DNA from: an uncultured Nitrososphaerales archaeon
Lineage (GTDB): Archaea; Thermoproteota; Nitrososphaeria; Nitrososphaerales; Gagatemarchaeaceae
DNA: 64,000 bases
Reading direction: 5' to 3'
Assembly (NCBI GenBank): GCA_963706445.1
Contig: OY970160.1
Coordinates: 576,001-640,000 of the forward strand
The translations under genes were made by a program, and so were the position numbers. The notes under the pieces are model-generated. The model had not been told where the DNA came from. It saw only the letters and a list, made by a program, of their open reading frames with translations, and made no database searches. The stretch's first letter is position 1, and each line of letters opens with the position of its first letter. Shown piece after piece: positions 27,196 through 31,260 of the stretch.

Positions 27196-28050
27196 TTGTC
27201 CTCACGCGTACCCCTGAGGTTCATCGGCCTAGGCGGAGGGGACGACATCAAACCGAAGATCGCTTCCACCATAAAGGAGATTGAGCTACACCGAAGGGAG
27301 CTCGAGAACCTCCGCGTCAAGCTCGAACAGAGACGGAAGTCATTGTTCGACACGACGGTCAAGGCCATGGTGGCCAAGGACCAGTCCAAGGCGACGATTT
27401 ACGCCAACGAATGGTCGGAGCTGAGGAAGGTGGGGAAGGTCGTTTATGCGAGCGAGCTCGCGCTCACCCAGGTGGTGCTGAGGCTGGAGAGCATCATCGA
27501 GGTCGGGGACGTGATGTCCCACATGAACAGTGCCTTCAAGGTCCTCCGCAAGGTGAACAAGTCCGTCCAGGGACTCGTCCCGTCCATAGACCAGGCGTCG
27601 GATGTGATCAACACCACTCTGTCCGAGACAATGGCTGAGATCGGACACGTGTCACCGTCGATATCTCTGAACATCGAGACCGAGAGCGGGGCCGAGCTTG
27701 TGGAGCAGGCGAGGAAGCTCGCCGAGGAGCGGGCCGAGGAGATGAAGCGCTCCCTCATCATCCCCCCACTCGAAATCCCGCGCGAAGCATTCGAGCCGAG
27801 GGTACCACTGCTCGCTACAGGGGATGACGATGAAGAGGCGGCCTTCCTGGGCACCATCTACAGGCCGAAGCCTACGGAAGAGGCAGAAGAACAGGTCCTG
27901 CAGTACGCCGCCATACACAATGGCAACGTGGACATATCTGACGCTTCTACCGTGCTCAAGATGCCTTCGGACGTCGTCGAGGGGGCGATGCTTGCCCTGA
28001 TGTCCCAGGGGAAGGTCAAGCTCAGCGAAATGGAGGCAAACAAGAAATGA
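27196..28050 (+). CDS. cdvB: ESCRT-III CdvB with C-terminal winged helix
   Basis: Snf7 core YANEWSELRK...LTQVVLRLE..EVGD plus a C-terminal wH. ATGA overlap with cdvC. Confidence 0.9.
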   Translation: MSSRVPLRFIGLGGGDDIKPKIASTIKEIELHRRELENLRVKLEQRRKSLFDTTVKAMVAKDQSKATIYANEWSELRKVGKVVYASELALTQVVLRLESIIEVGDVMSHMNSAFKVLRKVNKSVQGLVPSIDQASDVINTTLSETMAEIGHVSPSISLNIETESGAELVEQARKLAEERAEEMKRSLIIPPLEIPREAFEPRVPLLATGDDDEEAAFLGTIYRPKPTEEAEEQVLQYAAIHNGNVDISDASTVLKMPSDVVEGAMLALMSQGKVKLSEMEANKK

Positions 28051-29291
28051 GTGTCGTAGCCGCGAAGGAACTCGAAGACGACGCCAAGAAATACGCCTCC
28101 GAGGCGATCCGCCTCGACTCCCAGGGGGCCCACGGAATGGCTATCCAGATGTACCAGAAGGCGATCTCCACCCTTGTCAAACTTGTGCACCTCTACCCCG
28201 ACTACCGCCTGAACAAGCAGTACACAGAGCGGGCCATGGCTTACCAGGAGAGGGTCAGGGCCATACAAGTCGCCCACGGACTCCTCCCCCAGGACCGGAC
28301 TTCAGAGATGGGCGAATGGACCCCACCGACCACCGGTGGGAGGGGTTCCTCAAATGGGAACGGGGGGTCAGCGAACCAAAACTCCGCCAACGGGCCGCAG
28401 GTTGTACAACAGCTCAAGGCTTCTTTCAATGAGCTAGTCATCACCGAGAAGCCAGACGTGAAGTGGGACGACGTCATAGGCCTCGAAGACTGCAAGATGG
28501 CCATCCGCGAGTCGATCGTGTTCCCGTTCCTCAGGCCCGACCTCTTCAAGCTCGGGTGGCCAAGGGGGATTCTCCTCTACGGTCCGCCTGGGTGCGGGAA
28601 GACAATGGTTGCGGCCGCCACTGCCGCTGAGATCGACGGCTACTTCATCTCGGTCGACGCCGCTTCGATTATGAGCAAATGGCTGGGCGAGGGAGAGAAG
28701 AACGTCTCCAAGCTCTTCAGCAACGCCAGGAAGATGCTCAGCGATAACAAGCCGGTAATAGTGTTCGTCGACGAGATAGACTCCCTCCTCGGGACCCGCG
28801 GTCAGGAGGTGGGCGGAGAGGTCAGGGTGAGAGACCAGTTCCTCAAAGAGACCGACGGAATAAACGACAAGGGGAAAAACCTGCACTTGTATGTGATAGG
28901 GGCTACAAACAAGCCGTGGTCACTCGATCCCCCGTTTCTTAGACGCTTTAGTAAGAGGATTCTAGTTCCGATGCCTGATACTGATGCTCGCATGGCCCAG
29001 TTCAAGTTGTACACCGCTCCCCTGACACTCTCCGAAGATGTCGGTCTGGAGACATTGGCGAAGCTGAGTGACGGGTATTCGGGAAGTGACATCAAAGACA
29101 TATGCCAGGGGGTTCAGTTGCGGGTCGTCAGAGAATTGTTCAAGTCAGGCAAAGCGCTCGACAAGGAGACAACCACGAGACCTATCGCTGTAGCTGACTT
29201 TAAGGAGATCATGAGAACTAGGAAGCCTTCGGTCTCGCCCGACATGCTTAGGGCGTACGCCCAATGGTCGAATAGTTTCAGCGCACTCTAA
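28047..29291 (+). CDS. cdvC: Vps4-like AAA ATPase CdvC (MIT + AAA)
   Basis: N-terminal MIT domain, GPPGCGKT, FVDEID, GATNKPW and RRF.KRI motifs. Confidence 0.96.
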   Translation: MSVVAAKELEDDAKKYASEAIRLDSQGAHGMAIQMYQKAISTLVKLVHLYPDYRLNKQYTERAMAYQERVRAIQVAHGLLPQDRTSEMGEWTPPTTGGRGSSNGNGGSANQNSANGPQVVQQLKASFNELVITEKPDVKWDDVIGLEDCKMAIRESIVFPFLRPDLFKLGWPRGILLYGPPGCGKTMVAAATAAEIDGYFISVDAASIMSKWLGEGEKNVSKLFSNARKMLSDNKPVIVFVDEIDSLLGTRGQEVGGEVRVRDQFLKETDGINDKGKNLHLYVIGATNKPWSLDPPFLRRFSKRILVPMPDTDARMAQFKLYTAPLTLSEDVGLETLAKLSDGYSGSDIKDICQGVQLRVVRELFKSGKALDKETTTRPIAVADFKEIMRTRKPSVSPDMLRAYAQWSNSFSAL

Positions 29292-29346
29292 GTCAAGACA
29301 ATACCAAACGACGCATTCCCATAAAAGGCCGAAGGAGGCCACTTGA

Positions 29347-29895
29347 TTGCGATTCAGCGATGTTGTTGATGAACAGAAGGGCTTCGTTGCCGGTGAACTT
29401 GTCCTTCGTTTCAGGCTTCTGACTCGGTTTCTTCGTTCAGTGAAGGTCGTGGTCAAAAGGAGGCAGGTTCGCGCTTCGCTTGAATATCTTGAGGGCACGA
29501 TTACCGGAAACGAATTTCTGCAAGTTCTTGAAGTAGAACACATTCGTCATAAACGGAAGACTAGTCCCCTGAGAACTCTTGGCCCAAGATTCCCAATGAC
29601 TCGAACCCAGGCATTAGAGCTCTCTGCCGTCACATCTGCAAAAGCTAGGATTGAAGGAAATCAAAGAGCATTTCGCAGGCGAATGGAGAGGAGGGTCCTT
29701 TCGTTACCACAGGTATTCGGCGTAAGGGACATCGAAAATGTCATCGGCGTTTCAAAGCCTCGTGCTCAGGTGCTAGGAGTATTGATGGAACGCGAAGGTC
29801 TTGTCAAGAGCCATTTTGAAAGGGTCCCTTCACGCTTTCGCAAAAGAGTGTTTGAAAGGACCTTGACCTCCTACCCTCTCCACGGCCGAGGCTAA
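29347..29895 (+). pseudogene. internally deleted LAGLIDADG-like endonuclease with C-terminal HTH
   Basis: Lower GC. EQKGFVAG stops before the expected xxDGEG and is joined to RFL...VKRRQ...LEYL...ITGNEF. HTH-like tail. Confidence 0.5.
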
Positions 29896-29940
29896 TCCCG
29901 AGTCATTTGCTCAAACTCTTAACCACGCTCTTCTGACCCG

Positions 29941-31260
29941 ATGACGATGCGCCCCCAGCCCACTCCAGTCGAACTGAGAGGGATGGTAGGGAAGAAGGTG
30001 ACAATCTCCGGCTGGGTCCACGACGTGCGGGTCCTCGGCGGCATCAGCTTCGTCCTCCTCAGGAACTCGAAGGGGGTGGTCCAGGTCGCCGCGCCAAAGA
30101 AGGCCGTTTCTCCCGAACTCTTCTCCCTGATCGGCGGACTGCACCAGGAGGACGTGATTAAAGTGACCGGGGAGGCGAAGGAGAGCAAGGTCGCCCGGCT
30201 CGGATTCGAAATAATCCCTTCGACTGTGGTGGTGCTTGTCAAGGCTGACACCCCTCTGCCCCTGGACCCCCGAGGGGTGACCCCGGCGTCCCTTGACACA
30301 CGACTCGAGTGGAGGTCGCTCGAGCTCCGCAGGCCCGAGACCGCGGCGATATTCAAGATAGAGAACGCAGTTGTCCAGGGGTTCGAGAAGTTCCTCCAGG
30401 AATCGGGCTTCATCCGGGCCTTCACCCCGAGCATAATCGGGGGCGTCTCCGAGGGAGGCTCGGAGGTCTTCAAGATCGACTTCTACGGAAAGGAGGCCTT
30501 CCTCAGGCAGGATCCCCAACTCCACCGGCAGCTCACCATAGCCGGGGGGTTCGATAGAATCTACGACCTCGGCCCCAACTGGCGTGCCGAACTCTCACAC
30601 ACCCCGCGTCACATAAGCGAGCACAGGACAATCGCCCCCGAGATGGCCTTCCTCTCAGATGAGAGGGACGTCATGAGGTTGGAAGAGGATATGGTCGCCA
30701 GCGGGATTAGGCATGTTGTCAAGACGTGCCCTGATGAGCTGGGGTTGCTGAAGGCGGAGCTCGAGGTCCCCAAGACCCCATTCCCTGAGATCCAGTTTCC
30801 AGAGGTGTACTCTGTCCTGAAGGGAAAGGGGAAATTCCTCCCCAGGGGGGAGGACCTCGACGAAGAATCGAAGGACATCCTGGCGGCCTACGCCAAGGAG
30901 GAGTTCGGCACGGAGTACTTTTACGCAAACAGGTTCCCATCGAAGGCGAAGCCGTTCTACGTGATGAGGTATGACGACGAACCTGAGTTCGCTAGGTCGA
31001 CGGACTTCTTCCACGGGAGCCTCGAGCTCTCCTCCGGCGGCCAGCGCGAGCACAGGTACGACAAGATAATTGAACAAATCAAGGAGAAGGGGATGGACGC
31101 GAAGGCGCTGAGCTGGTTCACCGAGCCGTTCCGATACGGCGTCCCACCGCACGGAGGGTTCTCCTTCGGACTCGAGAGGTTCGTGGCGAGGCTTCTGGGT
31201 CTGGAGAACATCAAGGAGGCGGCCCTGTTCCCAAGGGACCCCGATCGCCTCCAGCCCTAG
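29941..31260 (+). CDS. aspS: archaeal aspartate--tRNA ligase (possibly non-discriminating)
   Basis: GWVHDVR OB fold, SEGG, Q.PQ, WRAE, ELSSGGQR, PPHGG..FGLER and LFPRD motifs. Confidence 0.95.
   Translation: MTMRPQPTPVELRGMVGKKVTISGWVHDVRVLGGISFVLLRNSKGVVQVAAPKKAVSPELFSLIGGLHQEDVIKVTGEAKESKVARLGFEIIPSTVVVLVKADTPLPLDPRGVTPASLDTRLEWRSLELRRPETAAIFKIENAVVQGFEKFLQESGFIRAFTPSIIGGVSEGGSEVFKIDFYGKEAFLRQDPQLHRQLTIAGGFDRIYDLGPNWRAELSHTPRHISEHRTIAPEMAFLSDERDVMRLEEDMVASGIRHVVKTCPDELGLLKAELEVPKTPFPEIQFPEVYSVLKGKGKFLPRGEDLDEESKDILAAYAKEEFGTEYFYANRFPSKAKPFYVMRYDDEPEFARSTDFFHGSLELSSGGQREHRYDKIIEQIKEKGMDAKALSWFTEPFRYGVPPHGGFSFGLERFVARLLGLENIKEAALFPRDPDRLQP

Follow-up and report, generated by a model that had tools for sequence, protein, structure and literature searches.

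Introduction

rRNA introns and inteins are the known settings of homing endonucleases in archaea. T-even phages and fungal mitochondria offer documented cases of free-standing homing endonuclease genes (HEGs) that, as they spread, bring along a replacement for part of an essential neighbour. Here we analyze a locus in a 64,000-nucleotide stretch of the genome of an uncultured Nitrososphaerales archaeon (contig OY970160.1, positions 576,001 to 640,000; we refer to this whole stretch as the window and to the genome it comes from as G000), where a 182-codon open reading frame (ORF) with a TTG start (29347-29895, + strand) lies between cdvC, encoding a Vps4-like AAA ATPase, and aspS. We conclude that this ORF is a free-standing I-CreI-type LAGLIDADG HEG that is now dead, and that a shift toward A/T-ending codons in the 3' part of cdvC is tied to the HEG.

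The free-standing endonucleases of phages cleave at a distance of hundreds of base pairs from the gene that encodes them, and the sequence in between is co-converted (PMC2988022). Like them, the HEG described here occupies a spacer between conserved genes and not an intron or intein, its presence varies among related genomes, and the flank between the conserved neighbour and the endonuclease gene appears to have been replaced on one side only, over several hundred base pairs. The phage enzymes are of the GIY-YIG or HNH type, whereas ours is a LAGLIDADG protein whose cleavage is deduced by comparison; and while phage homing occurs during co-infections, homing on an archaeal chromosome would need DNA exchange from cell to cell.

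A second parallel is found in the fungal mitochondrial mORFs (Allomyces macrogynus atp6; Glomus atp6, atp9, cox2, and nad3), which create hybrid genes: a LAGLIDADG or GIY-YIG ORF following a conserved gene carries a foreign, largely synonymous C-terminal part of that gene, and the displaced native C-terminus may persist downstream (PMC3630166). The recoded, protein-conserved 3' tract of cdvC resembles this arrangement, as does a displaced 33-nt native-type end of cdvC in one relative (G001). Our locus differs in lying on an archaeal chromosome as opposed to an organelle genome, and in having no duplicate of the native cdvC end in the window (none between 29896 and 29940). Furthermore, in-frame fusion to the host gene is frequent among mORFs; the HEG here is separate and stands behind a promoter-like box. 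In the searchable literature we found no archaeal chromosomal free-standing LAGLIDADG gene that travels with the recoded end of an essential neighbour. The protein family itself can be recognised, automatic annotation having already named one of its members, and the case made here for the locus is entirely comparative.

Identity of the ORF downstream of cdvC

A Pfam search with the ORF returned no match, and an intact paralogue matched only LAGLIDADG_3 with an E-value of 0.17; in place of Pfam, homology was established through relatives, profiles, and fold. The relatives were metagenome-assembled genomes of a genus of non-ammonia-oxidising Thaumarchaeota (e.g., REEA66 and REEA69), together with the metagenome contigs L109, L110, and L112. 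In G052 (REEA66), a 244-codon open frame directly after cdvC (L017:728-1462, - strand) reads '..ISGFFDGEGAIHV..' and is then collinear with the window ORF, to which it has 65% identity overall and about 73% over the shared C-terminal part. A reading of the window made from its sequence only had likened the ORF to a LAGLIDADG protein, and this likeness was borne out: the ORF shares 65-73% identity with full-length proteins encoded next to cdvC that contain 'SGFFDGEGAI', and both the profile and the predicted fold match I-CreI and I-MsoI.

A hidden Markov model (HMM) of the family matched the window ORF in hmmsearch with an E-value of 6.7e-20, over profile positions 76-226 only, positions 1-75 being missing, and the ORF was the only significant family member that this HMM found in G000. 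With an HMM built from the paralogues, leaving out the cdvC-linked subfamily, E-values were 1.1e-15 for the G052 protein and 1.1e-4 (Z = 1e6) for the window ORF, which was matched only past the beta core. Our family profile (A3) matched I-CreI (4e-5), single-chain I-CreI (9.4e-10), and I-MsoI (5e-8), while one paralogue on its own matched I-MsoI (3.6e-7) and I-CreI (0.004). An AlphaFold model of the G052 protein (pLDDT 83) was assigned a Foldseek probability of 1.0 to I-Vdi141I, I-CreI, I-CvuI, and I-MsoI, with a target TM of about 0.6 for I-Vdi141I and I-CreI, and the name given to this protein by NCBI is LAGLIDADG family homing endonuclease. There were 28 metagenome homologues with 55-100% identity to the G052 protein, mostly full length (this count includes the G052 protein and the window product); the three of these that we looked up all lie between cdvC and aspS.

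The family combines one LAGLIDADG motif with a C-terminal helical or winged-helix-like extension and, because of the single motif, the enzyme should act as a homodimer like I-CreI. Each chain has a single motif with an acidic residue (GFFDGEG or GYFDGDG), a feature shared with I-CreI, I-MsoI, I-CvuI, and the archaeal I-Vdi141I; however, those four enzymes are intron-encoded and about 150-170 residues long, whereas the family described here is free-standing and has the extension of ~90 residues in addition. The window copy, unlike the I-CreI group, has no core at all.

Anatomy of the relic

The sequence-only reading had proposed that the catalytic DGEG core was deleted and that 'GFVAG' was left of the motif. 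The letters on which it relied (EQKGFVAGELVL...VKRRQ...LEYL) are present in the ORF and the deletion of the core stands, but 'GFVAG' belongs to an out-of-frame leader. A protein alignment (A1) in which 'GFVAGE' of the ORF frame was placed under 'GFFDGEG' was dropped, as DNA alignment and translation put the true N-terminus in the +1 frame. The first ~24 codons of the present ORF are an out-of-frame reading of the old N-terminus, and in-frame homology to the endonuclease is confined to 29419-29892. The true remnant, MLLMNRRASLPVNLSFVSGF followed by a stop ('..VNLSFVSGF'), is a 20-codon stub of the original N-terminus in the +1 frame (29360-29422, + strand; ATG at 29360, TGA at 29420-29422) that contains the first half of the LAGLIDADG helix and matches 'MQTKRANPPAAVNISFISGFFDGEG' in the intact N-terminus of L109.

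After SGF, the window sequence jumps to (L)TRFLRSVKVVVKRRQ.., whereas G052 has 67 residues between SGF and RFLRSV. The reading frame differs across this junction (29419-29422, where ...SGF meets (L)TRFLRSV): relative to the sequence after it, the sequence before it is in the +1 frame. Since TRFLRSVKVVVKRRQ lies 67 residues further on in G052, the lesion is a deletion of about 65 codons that shifts the frame and starts exactly where FDGEG should come. It takes out FDGEG with the catalytic acid, beta1-beta4, and helix 2; the metal-binding Asp/Glu and the Gly after the LAGLIDADG helix are absent from the window copy and present in G052, L109, L110, L112, and the damaged copy of G002. With FDGEG deleted and '..SFVSGF' out of frame, the window gene is a relic of a LAGLIDADG member and not a functional member. 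What survives in frame are the last helices of the LAGLIDADG domain and the C-terminal extension.

The surviving ~150-155 C-terminal codons are open, with 65-73% identity to the intact copies, and in this part dN/dS is at most 0.13 among G000, G052, and G002. In a protein tree of seven HEG copies, whose branching order is not resolved, G000 has the shortest terminal branch (0.14 vs 0.19-0.54). The deletion happened recently, or else the winged-helix-like module still serves a purpose.

Upstream of the stub, CCAAAC at 29304 and CATAAAAGG at 29320 form a promoter-like element (29304-29328, + strand) that aligns with CCAAA-N(10-13)-TATA-like boxes before the intact copies in G052, L109, L110, and L112, and that probably was the promoter of the endonuclease gene. 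We also observed a Shine-Dalgarno-like AAGGAGG 8 nt before the TTG of the ORF (29332-29349). This has no counterpart before the intact copies, which points either to chance or to a newly used start for the truncated protein.

Composition shift within cdvC

The cdvC gene of the window (28047-29291, + strand) encodes 414 residues with Pfam matches to MIT, AAA, AAA_lid_3, and Vps4_C. The sequence-only reading had counted by hand 19 of 33 codons ending in A/T at 28890-28988 vs 3 of 33 at 28440-28538 and had seen a weaker shift from there to the stop; the counts are exact, both in the frame of cdvC, and the weaker shift was recovered as well. The GC content at third codon positions (GC3; AT3 for A and T) mostly ranges between 0.76 and 0.91 in cdvC. 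It is lower in two places: 0.64-0.73 in the linker (about 28278-28475) and 0.52-0.70 in the part that begins near 28870 and runs to the stop. The maximum-likelihood change point lies at codon 282 (nt 28890), with GC3 of 0.79 before and 0.62 after it, and delimits an AT3-rich, synonymously divergent tract from codon 282 to the stop (28890-29291, + strand), which we propose as the co-conversion tract.

Overall GC is 0.47-0.53 at 28800-29900 vs 0.58-0.64 on either side. As had also been claimed, the next gene is richer in AT, the ORF at 29347-29895 having a GC3 of 0.47 vs a genome median of 0.77. The other flank is unaffected: GC3 of aspS is 0.83 over codons 1-60, 0.80 over codons 61-140, and 0.82 over the rest.

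As background we used a crude set of 1000 gene calls from this 1.82-Mb genome, in which 635 genes have at least 300 codons. The contrast in GC3 between the last 139 codons of cdvC and the preceding 146 is 0.196, which ranks third among these 635. Only 0.4% of all 33-codon segments in the genome have a GC3 of 14/33 or less and, after correction for amino acids, the last 139 codons of cdvC give z = -4.1 (lowest 3% of segments) and codons 282-314 give z = -4.8 (lowest 0.25%). Based on this rank, the segment frequency, and the corrected scores, the GC3 shift in cdvC is real and, while not the only one in the genome, uncommon. Larger drops at the 3' end occur only in two genes outside the window, at G000:C1:556041-557225 (- strand; 0.41) and 1654667-1656121 (+ strand; 0.26).

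The cdvC-aspS spacer in related genomes

The gene order cdvB-cdvC-aspS is kept across the genus. In the window, cdvB (27196-28050; Pfam match to Snf7) lies directly upstream of cdvC, and the promoter-like box of aspS (AAACTCTTAACC) with aspS itself (29913-31260, + strand), of ordinary composition, marks the right border of the insertion. All copies of the cdvC-linked subfamily that we looked at (G000, G052, G002, G060, G017, L109, L110, and L112) sit between cdvC and aspS. Intact copies directly downstream of cdvC were found in G052, L110, and L112, and damaged full-length copies in G002 (one in-frame TAA) and L109 (a C-terminal frameshift). Besides the internally deleted copy of G000, there is a 78-codon open fragment in G060, corresponding to the winged-helix-like end and 73% identical, and in G017 only a few dozen nucleotides of the last codons are left. 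In one half of the genus, the aspS box directly follows the cdvC stop, the TATA-like box lying 7-29 nt after it in most of these genomes.

The states just described and those that follow belong to the other half. The HEG is alone in the spacer in G000, L110, and L112, and is accompanied by a 141-codon gene in G052 and G002; the 141-codon gene is alone at 6 of 30 loci surveyed and also in G051. In G059 and G018 the spacer is empty, with a possible trace of the 3' end of the 141-codon gene. The HEG thus lies outside any intron or intein, occurs at a fixed site in different hosts, is present in some genomes and absent from others, and includes decaying copies, and the spacer states are the invasion-decay-loss series expected of a homing element. 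The metagenome contigs that carry the HEG are no closer to G000 than are the genus representatives (~75-78% nucleotide identity).

The 141-codon gene (about 120-141 codons; e.g., L015:284-706 (-), L017:292-690 (-), and L105:3196-3567 (+)) occurs in the spacer of many relatives and is absent from the window. It has no Pfam match; a feature search gave a lead to clusters of Mrr or PD-(D/E)xK restriction-endonuclease-like proteins (score 0.93), with the family in 11% of the cluster members, and the hot spot may here harbour a second gene that is mobile or encodes a nuclease. At one further locus (L040 and L107; G016:C1:1400012-1404063), the match to cdvC ends at residue 397 in an 802-codon frame and aspS is split at residue 178, which may reflect fusion, frameshifts, or an assembly error.

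Association of the HEG with the cdvC 3' shift

We compared the eight carriers of the HEG listed above with 20 HEG-free alleles that have no trace of an insertion (the non-carriers), and located change points with a two-segment likelihood scan of GC3 in reference codon numbering. A step at codons 280-284 was found in seven of the eight carriers (L110 at 280, L112 at 281, G000 at 282, G060 at 283, and G052, G002, and L109 at 284), the step in G017 being weak, and was absent from 19 of the 20 non-carriers. Mean AT3 of the two groups is indistinguishable up to codon 280 and diverges at codon 281; in carriers it is 0.36-0.44 over codons 281-310, and thereafter 0.19-0.46 vs 0.12-0.27 in non-carriers up to the stop.

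Five of the ten codons with the largest carrier excess of A/T at the third position lie at the boundary (284, 287, 288, 294, and 299). Six of eight carriers and none of the 20 non-carriers have GAT at codon 294, and G000 has ATA284, ACA287, and GAT294. This cluster of HEG-linked synonymous states makes codons 284-299 (IGATNKPWSLDPPFLR; 28896-28943, + strand), in the AAA sensor-1/arginine-finger region, a candidate recognition or immunity site. Over the HEG-linked 3' tract as a whole, the protein is conserved and the differences are at synonymous sites. In GC3, the 3' part of cdvC comes close to the HEG next to it (0.63 and 0.47, respectively, in G000; 0.73 and 0.59 in G052; 0.82 and 0.78 in G002), and the ~27 family members in the genus have GC3 values 0.03-0.28 (mostly 0.1-0.25) below those of their neighbours.

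Recombination within cdvC

When cdvC was split at codon 275 or 280 and the 5' and 3' parts were placed in separate trees, the relic carrier G017 showed a significant conflict. Its 5' part groups with its species sisters (support 100/99 to 100/100), with G019 as sister (100/100), while its 3' part is sister to that of G001 (100/99). Approximately unbiased (AU) tests rejected the alternative placements (p = 0.0017 and 0.011; 0.00096 and 0.0086 in a larger set), and past codons 270-300 the identity between G017 and its sister is about 0.70, compared with about 0.87 before them. The 3' part of L109 is sister to that of G052 (96/94) and its 5' part is not, with AU p values that are marginal (0.039 and 0.085). 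G000 has no close relative, as is seen from the saturation of synonymous sites throughout, and the placement of its 3' part in the tree may be due to compositional attraction.

A different trace was found in G001 (L026:2727-2825), from which the HEG is gone: the functional, AT-rich end of cdvC (..QWSNNFSAL) is followed by 17 nt, then by a 33-nt copy of the native-type end (..QWSERFKAL), and then by the aspS box. This duplicate was found only in G001. We conclude that the evolution of cdvC within this genus is mosaic.

Paralogous HEGs and a P-loop insertion in cdvC

Of the 55 genus genomes, 18 contain a paralogous family ('VAGYFDGDG..'), with up to six copies in each. These free-standing LAGLIDADG genes are found at two or more other fixed sites, including the tsr3 locus (L042-L053 and L075-L096) and a second locus (L056, L061, L064, and L065). 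At the former, in about 13 genomes, the paralogue lies immediately upstream of a gene that we take, from its sequence, to be tsr3-like; stop-bearing and fragmentary copies occur there. In G000, outside the window and ~4 kb from a tsr3 locus without HEG, a 156-codon frame (G000:C1:130079-130546, + strand) gave a weak match to the N-terminal half of the LAGLIDADG family HMM (E-value 0.011, profile positions 10-97).

In sister species (G051, L105:795-3104; G049, G055, G054, G045, G044, G021, and G023), cdvC is about 770-830 codons long due to a 361-residue insertion in the Walker A loop (GPPG/CFDEQT...VWSGN/CGKT). This insertion has intein-like ends and the LAGLIDADG-like blocks 'LWLAEGY' and 'YARGDGTH', and its Pfam matches are weak (LAGLIDADG_3, 0.025; Intein_splicing, 0.032). 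A search of the literature found no paper on a CdvC/Vps4 intein.

Discussion

We think it fairly probable that the best account of this locus is homing without an intron, with one-sided co-conversion of the end of cdvC and later decay of the endonuclease gene. In this account, a free-standing HEG would have colonised the cdvC-aspS spacer in one half of the genus. The target of the enzyme would be HEG-free cdvC, cut in the most conserved AAA motif (near codons 282-295) at a distance of ~400 bp upstream from the HEG; the break would be repaired from a HEG-bearing chromosome, and the interval from the cut to the HEG would be copied along. The HEG would thereby always travel with its own 3' end of cdvC, which is AT-richer and differs at synonymous sites while encoding an identical protein, and which presumably is left uncut. 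G000 would then represent a stage of decay, in which FDGEG and the DNA-binding sheet have been deleted and the 20-codon stub and the open C-terminal part are left. The sequence-only reading had drawn the same process from phage precedent: the identity of the relic, its site specificity, the presence, absence, and decay of copies among relatives, the one-sided step with its shared boundary, and the recombination of the cdvC 3' part in the relic-bearing G017 speak for it, and one detail, the frame of the motif remnant, had to be corrected. Because the step is still sharp although the synonymous sites of the carriers are mutually saturated, the pattern suggests a continuing process, be it repeated re-introduction or the escape of donor-only DNA from GC-biased conversion.

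Several observations weigh against homing with co-conversion. The putative cut site is placed by the composition boundary only. G059 and G048, which have lost the HEG and are nested among carriers, show a step at codon 294 with no HEG in place (the spacer of G059 holds the possible remnant of the 141-codon gene), and G006, which is HEG-free with a 29-nt spacer and no trace of insertion, has a 3' drop in GC3 from codon 307. The HEGs linked to tsr3 have no effect on their flanks, as neither the 5' end of tsr3 nor the divergent upstream gene dips in GC3; the flank effect is accordingly specific to the cdvC-linked subfamily and not a general property of the family. A search for conversion tracts among carriers by nucleotide and identical-codon identity met saturated synonymous sites (identical-codon fractions of 0.4-0.6), so that no common recent conversion tract is demonstrable. 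The AU tests were picked once the trees had been seen, and the conflict between the 5' and 3' parts of cdvC in G000 itself is not significant (AU p = 0.22).

The shift in cdvC could also have come about with no cleavage. The HEG, whether active or not, and the cdvC 3' end may have moved between species as a passive cassette from AT-richer donors by ordinary homologous recombination, the common boundary at codon ~281 being the nearest block of high identity where crossovers resolve. The block before codon 281 (GEVRVRDQFLKETDG...) is indeed almost invariant in nucleotides, possible donors exist within the genus (cdvC GC3 down to 0.65-0.70), and recombination is demonstrated here while cleavage is deduced. 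Yet aspS should be equally open to crossovers and the effect is strictly one-sided, the carriers have particular synonymous states in common at the boundary despite saturation elsewhere, and many copies retain the intact catalytic motif and fold, from which selection for nuclease function is likely; on balance we consider this explanation unlikely. Alternatively, the tract may be old resident sequence and not a foreign allele, with HEG-linked DNA, as donor-only DNA or as DNA that the insertion polymorphism makes less prone to recombine, escaping GC-biased conversion or selection and drifting to AT in place. Every family member is AT-richer than its host, the cdvC 3' GC3 tracks that of the adjacent HEG in G000, G052, and G002, and the sharp step despite saturation argues for a continuing process over a single old import. 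Such a drift in place is at odds with the different phylogenetic origin of the 3' and 5' parts of cdvC in G017 (and marginally in L109) and with the absence of drift beside the tsr3-linked paralogues, and plain suppression of recombination should affect both flanks, so that we hold it to be very unlikely as an explanation of its own. It is compatible with homing as the cause of the donor-only behaviour, and is therefore partly a refinement and not an alternative.

A further question is whether the ORF of the window has been put to another use. WhiA/DUF199 proteins are LAGLIDADG derivatives in which catalysis has been lost and DNA binding kept (PMC3384342), and a similar fate is possible for the C-terminal part here, as a parallel of fate and not of sequence; WhiA retains the LAGLIDADG fold, whereas in our relic the fold has been deleted and only the appended C-terminal module is left. 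The ~150 C-terminal residues would then be kept as a DNA-binding protein, e.g., with a regulatory role at the cdvC-aspS junction, and the nuclease half would be dispensable. The dN/dS of at most 0.13 in the retained part, the shortest terminal branch of the HEG tree in G000, and the 182-codon open frame after a strong AAGGAGG-N8-TTG are in line with this, as is the independent separation of the same C-terminal part in G002 (by a stop and then an ATG) and the retention of just the 78-codon frame of the winged-helix-like end in G060. However, since dS is saturated, the low dN/dS mostly reflects the time before the deletion, as a whole gene; the deletion may be recent; and the same part has decayed to a few dozen nucleotides in G017 and been wholly lost in many relatives. 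We therefore regard domestication of the relic as possible but doubtful.

Returning to intron-less homing, a broader scheme would join several of these elements: homing would be active now at cdvC between chromosomes of soil and sediment Thaumarchaeota; donor-only DNA (the HEG and the tract to the cut) would escape the GC-biased conversion that holds GC3 at about 0.8-0.9; an AT step at a conserved motif would be a general cleavage-site footprint of free-standing HEGs; and the winged-helix-like module of dead copies would be reused for DNA binding. That all of this should hold together seems improbable to us.

Meganuclease engineers may take an interest in an I-CreI-type core to which a DNA-binding extension has been added, and the nucleotide-sharp candidate cut site makes the target of the enzyme testable with a substrate of about 60 bp. 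The mosaicism of cdvC and the intein-like insertion that sister species carry in its P-loop matter for the use of cdvC as a phylogenetic marker. The locus itself is a natural series from intact to dead to lost copies, at one site beside an essential cell-division ATPase.

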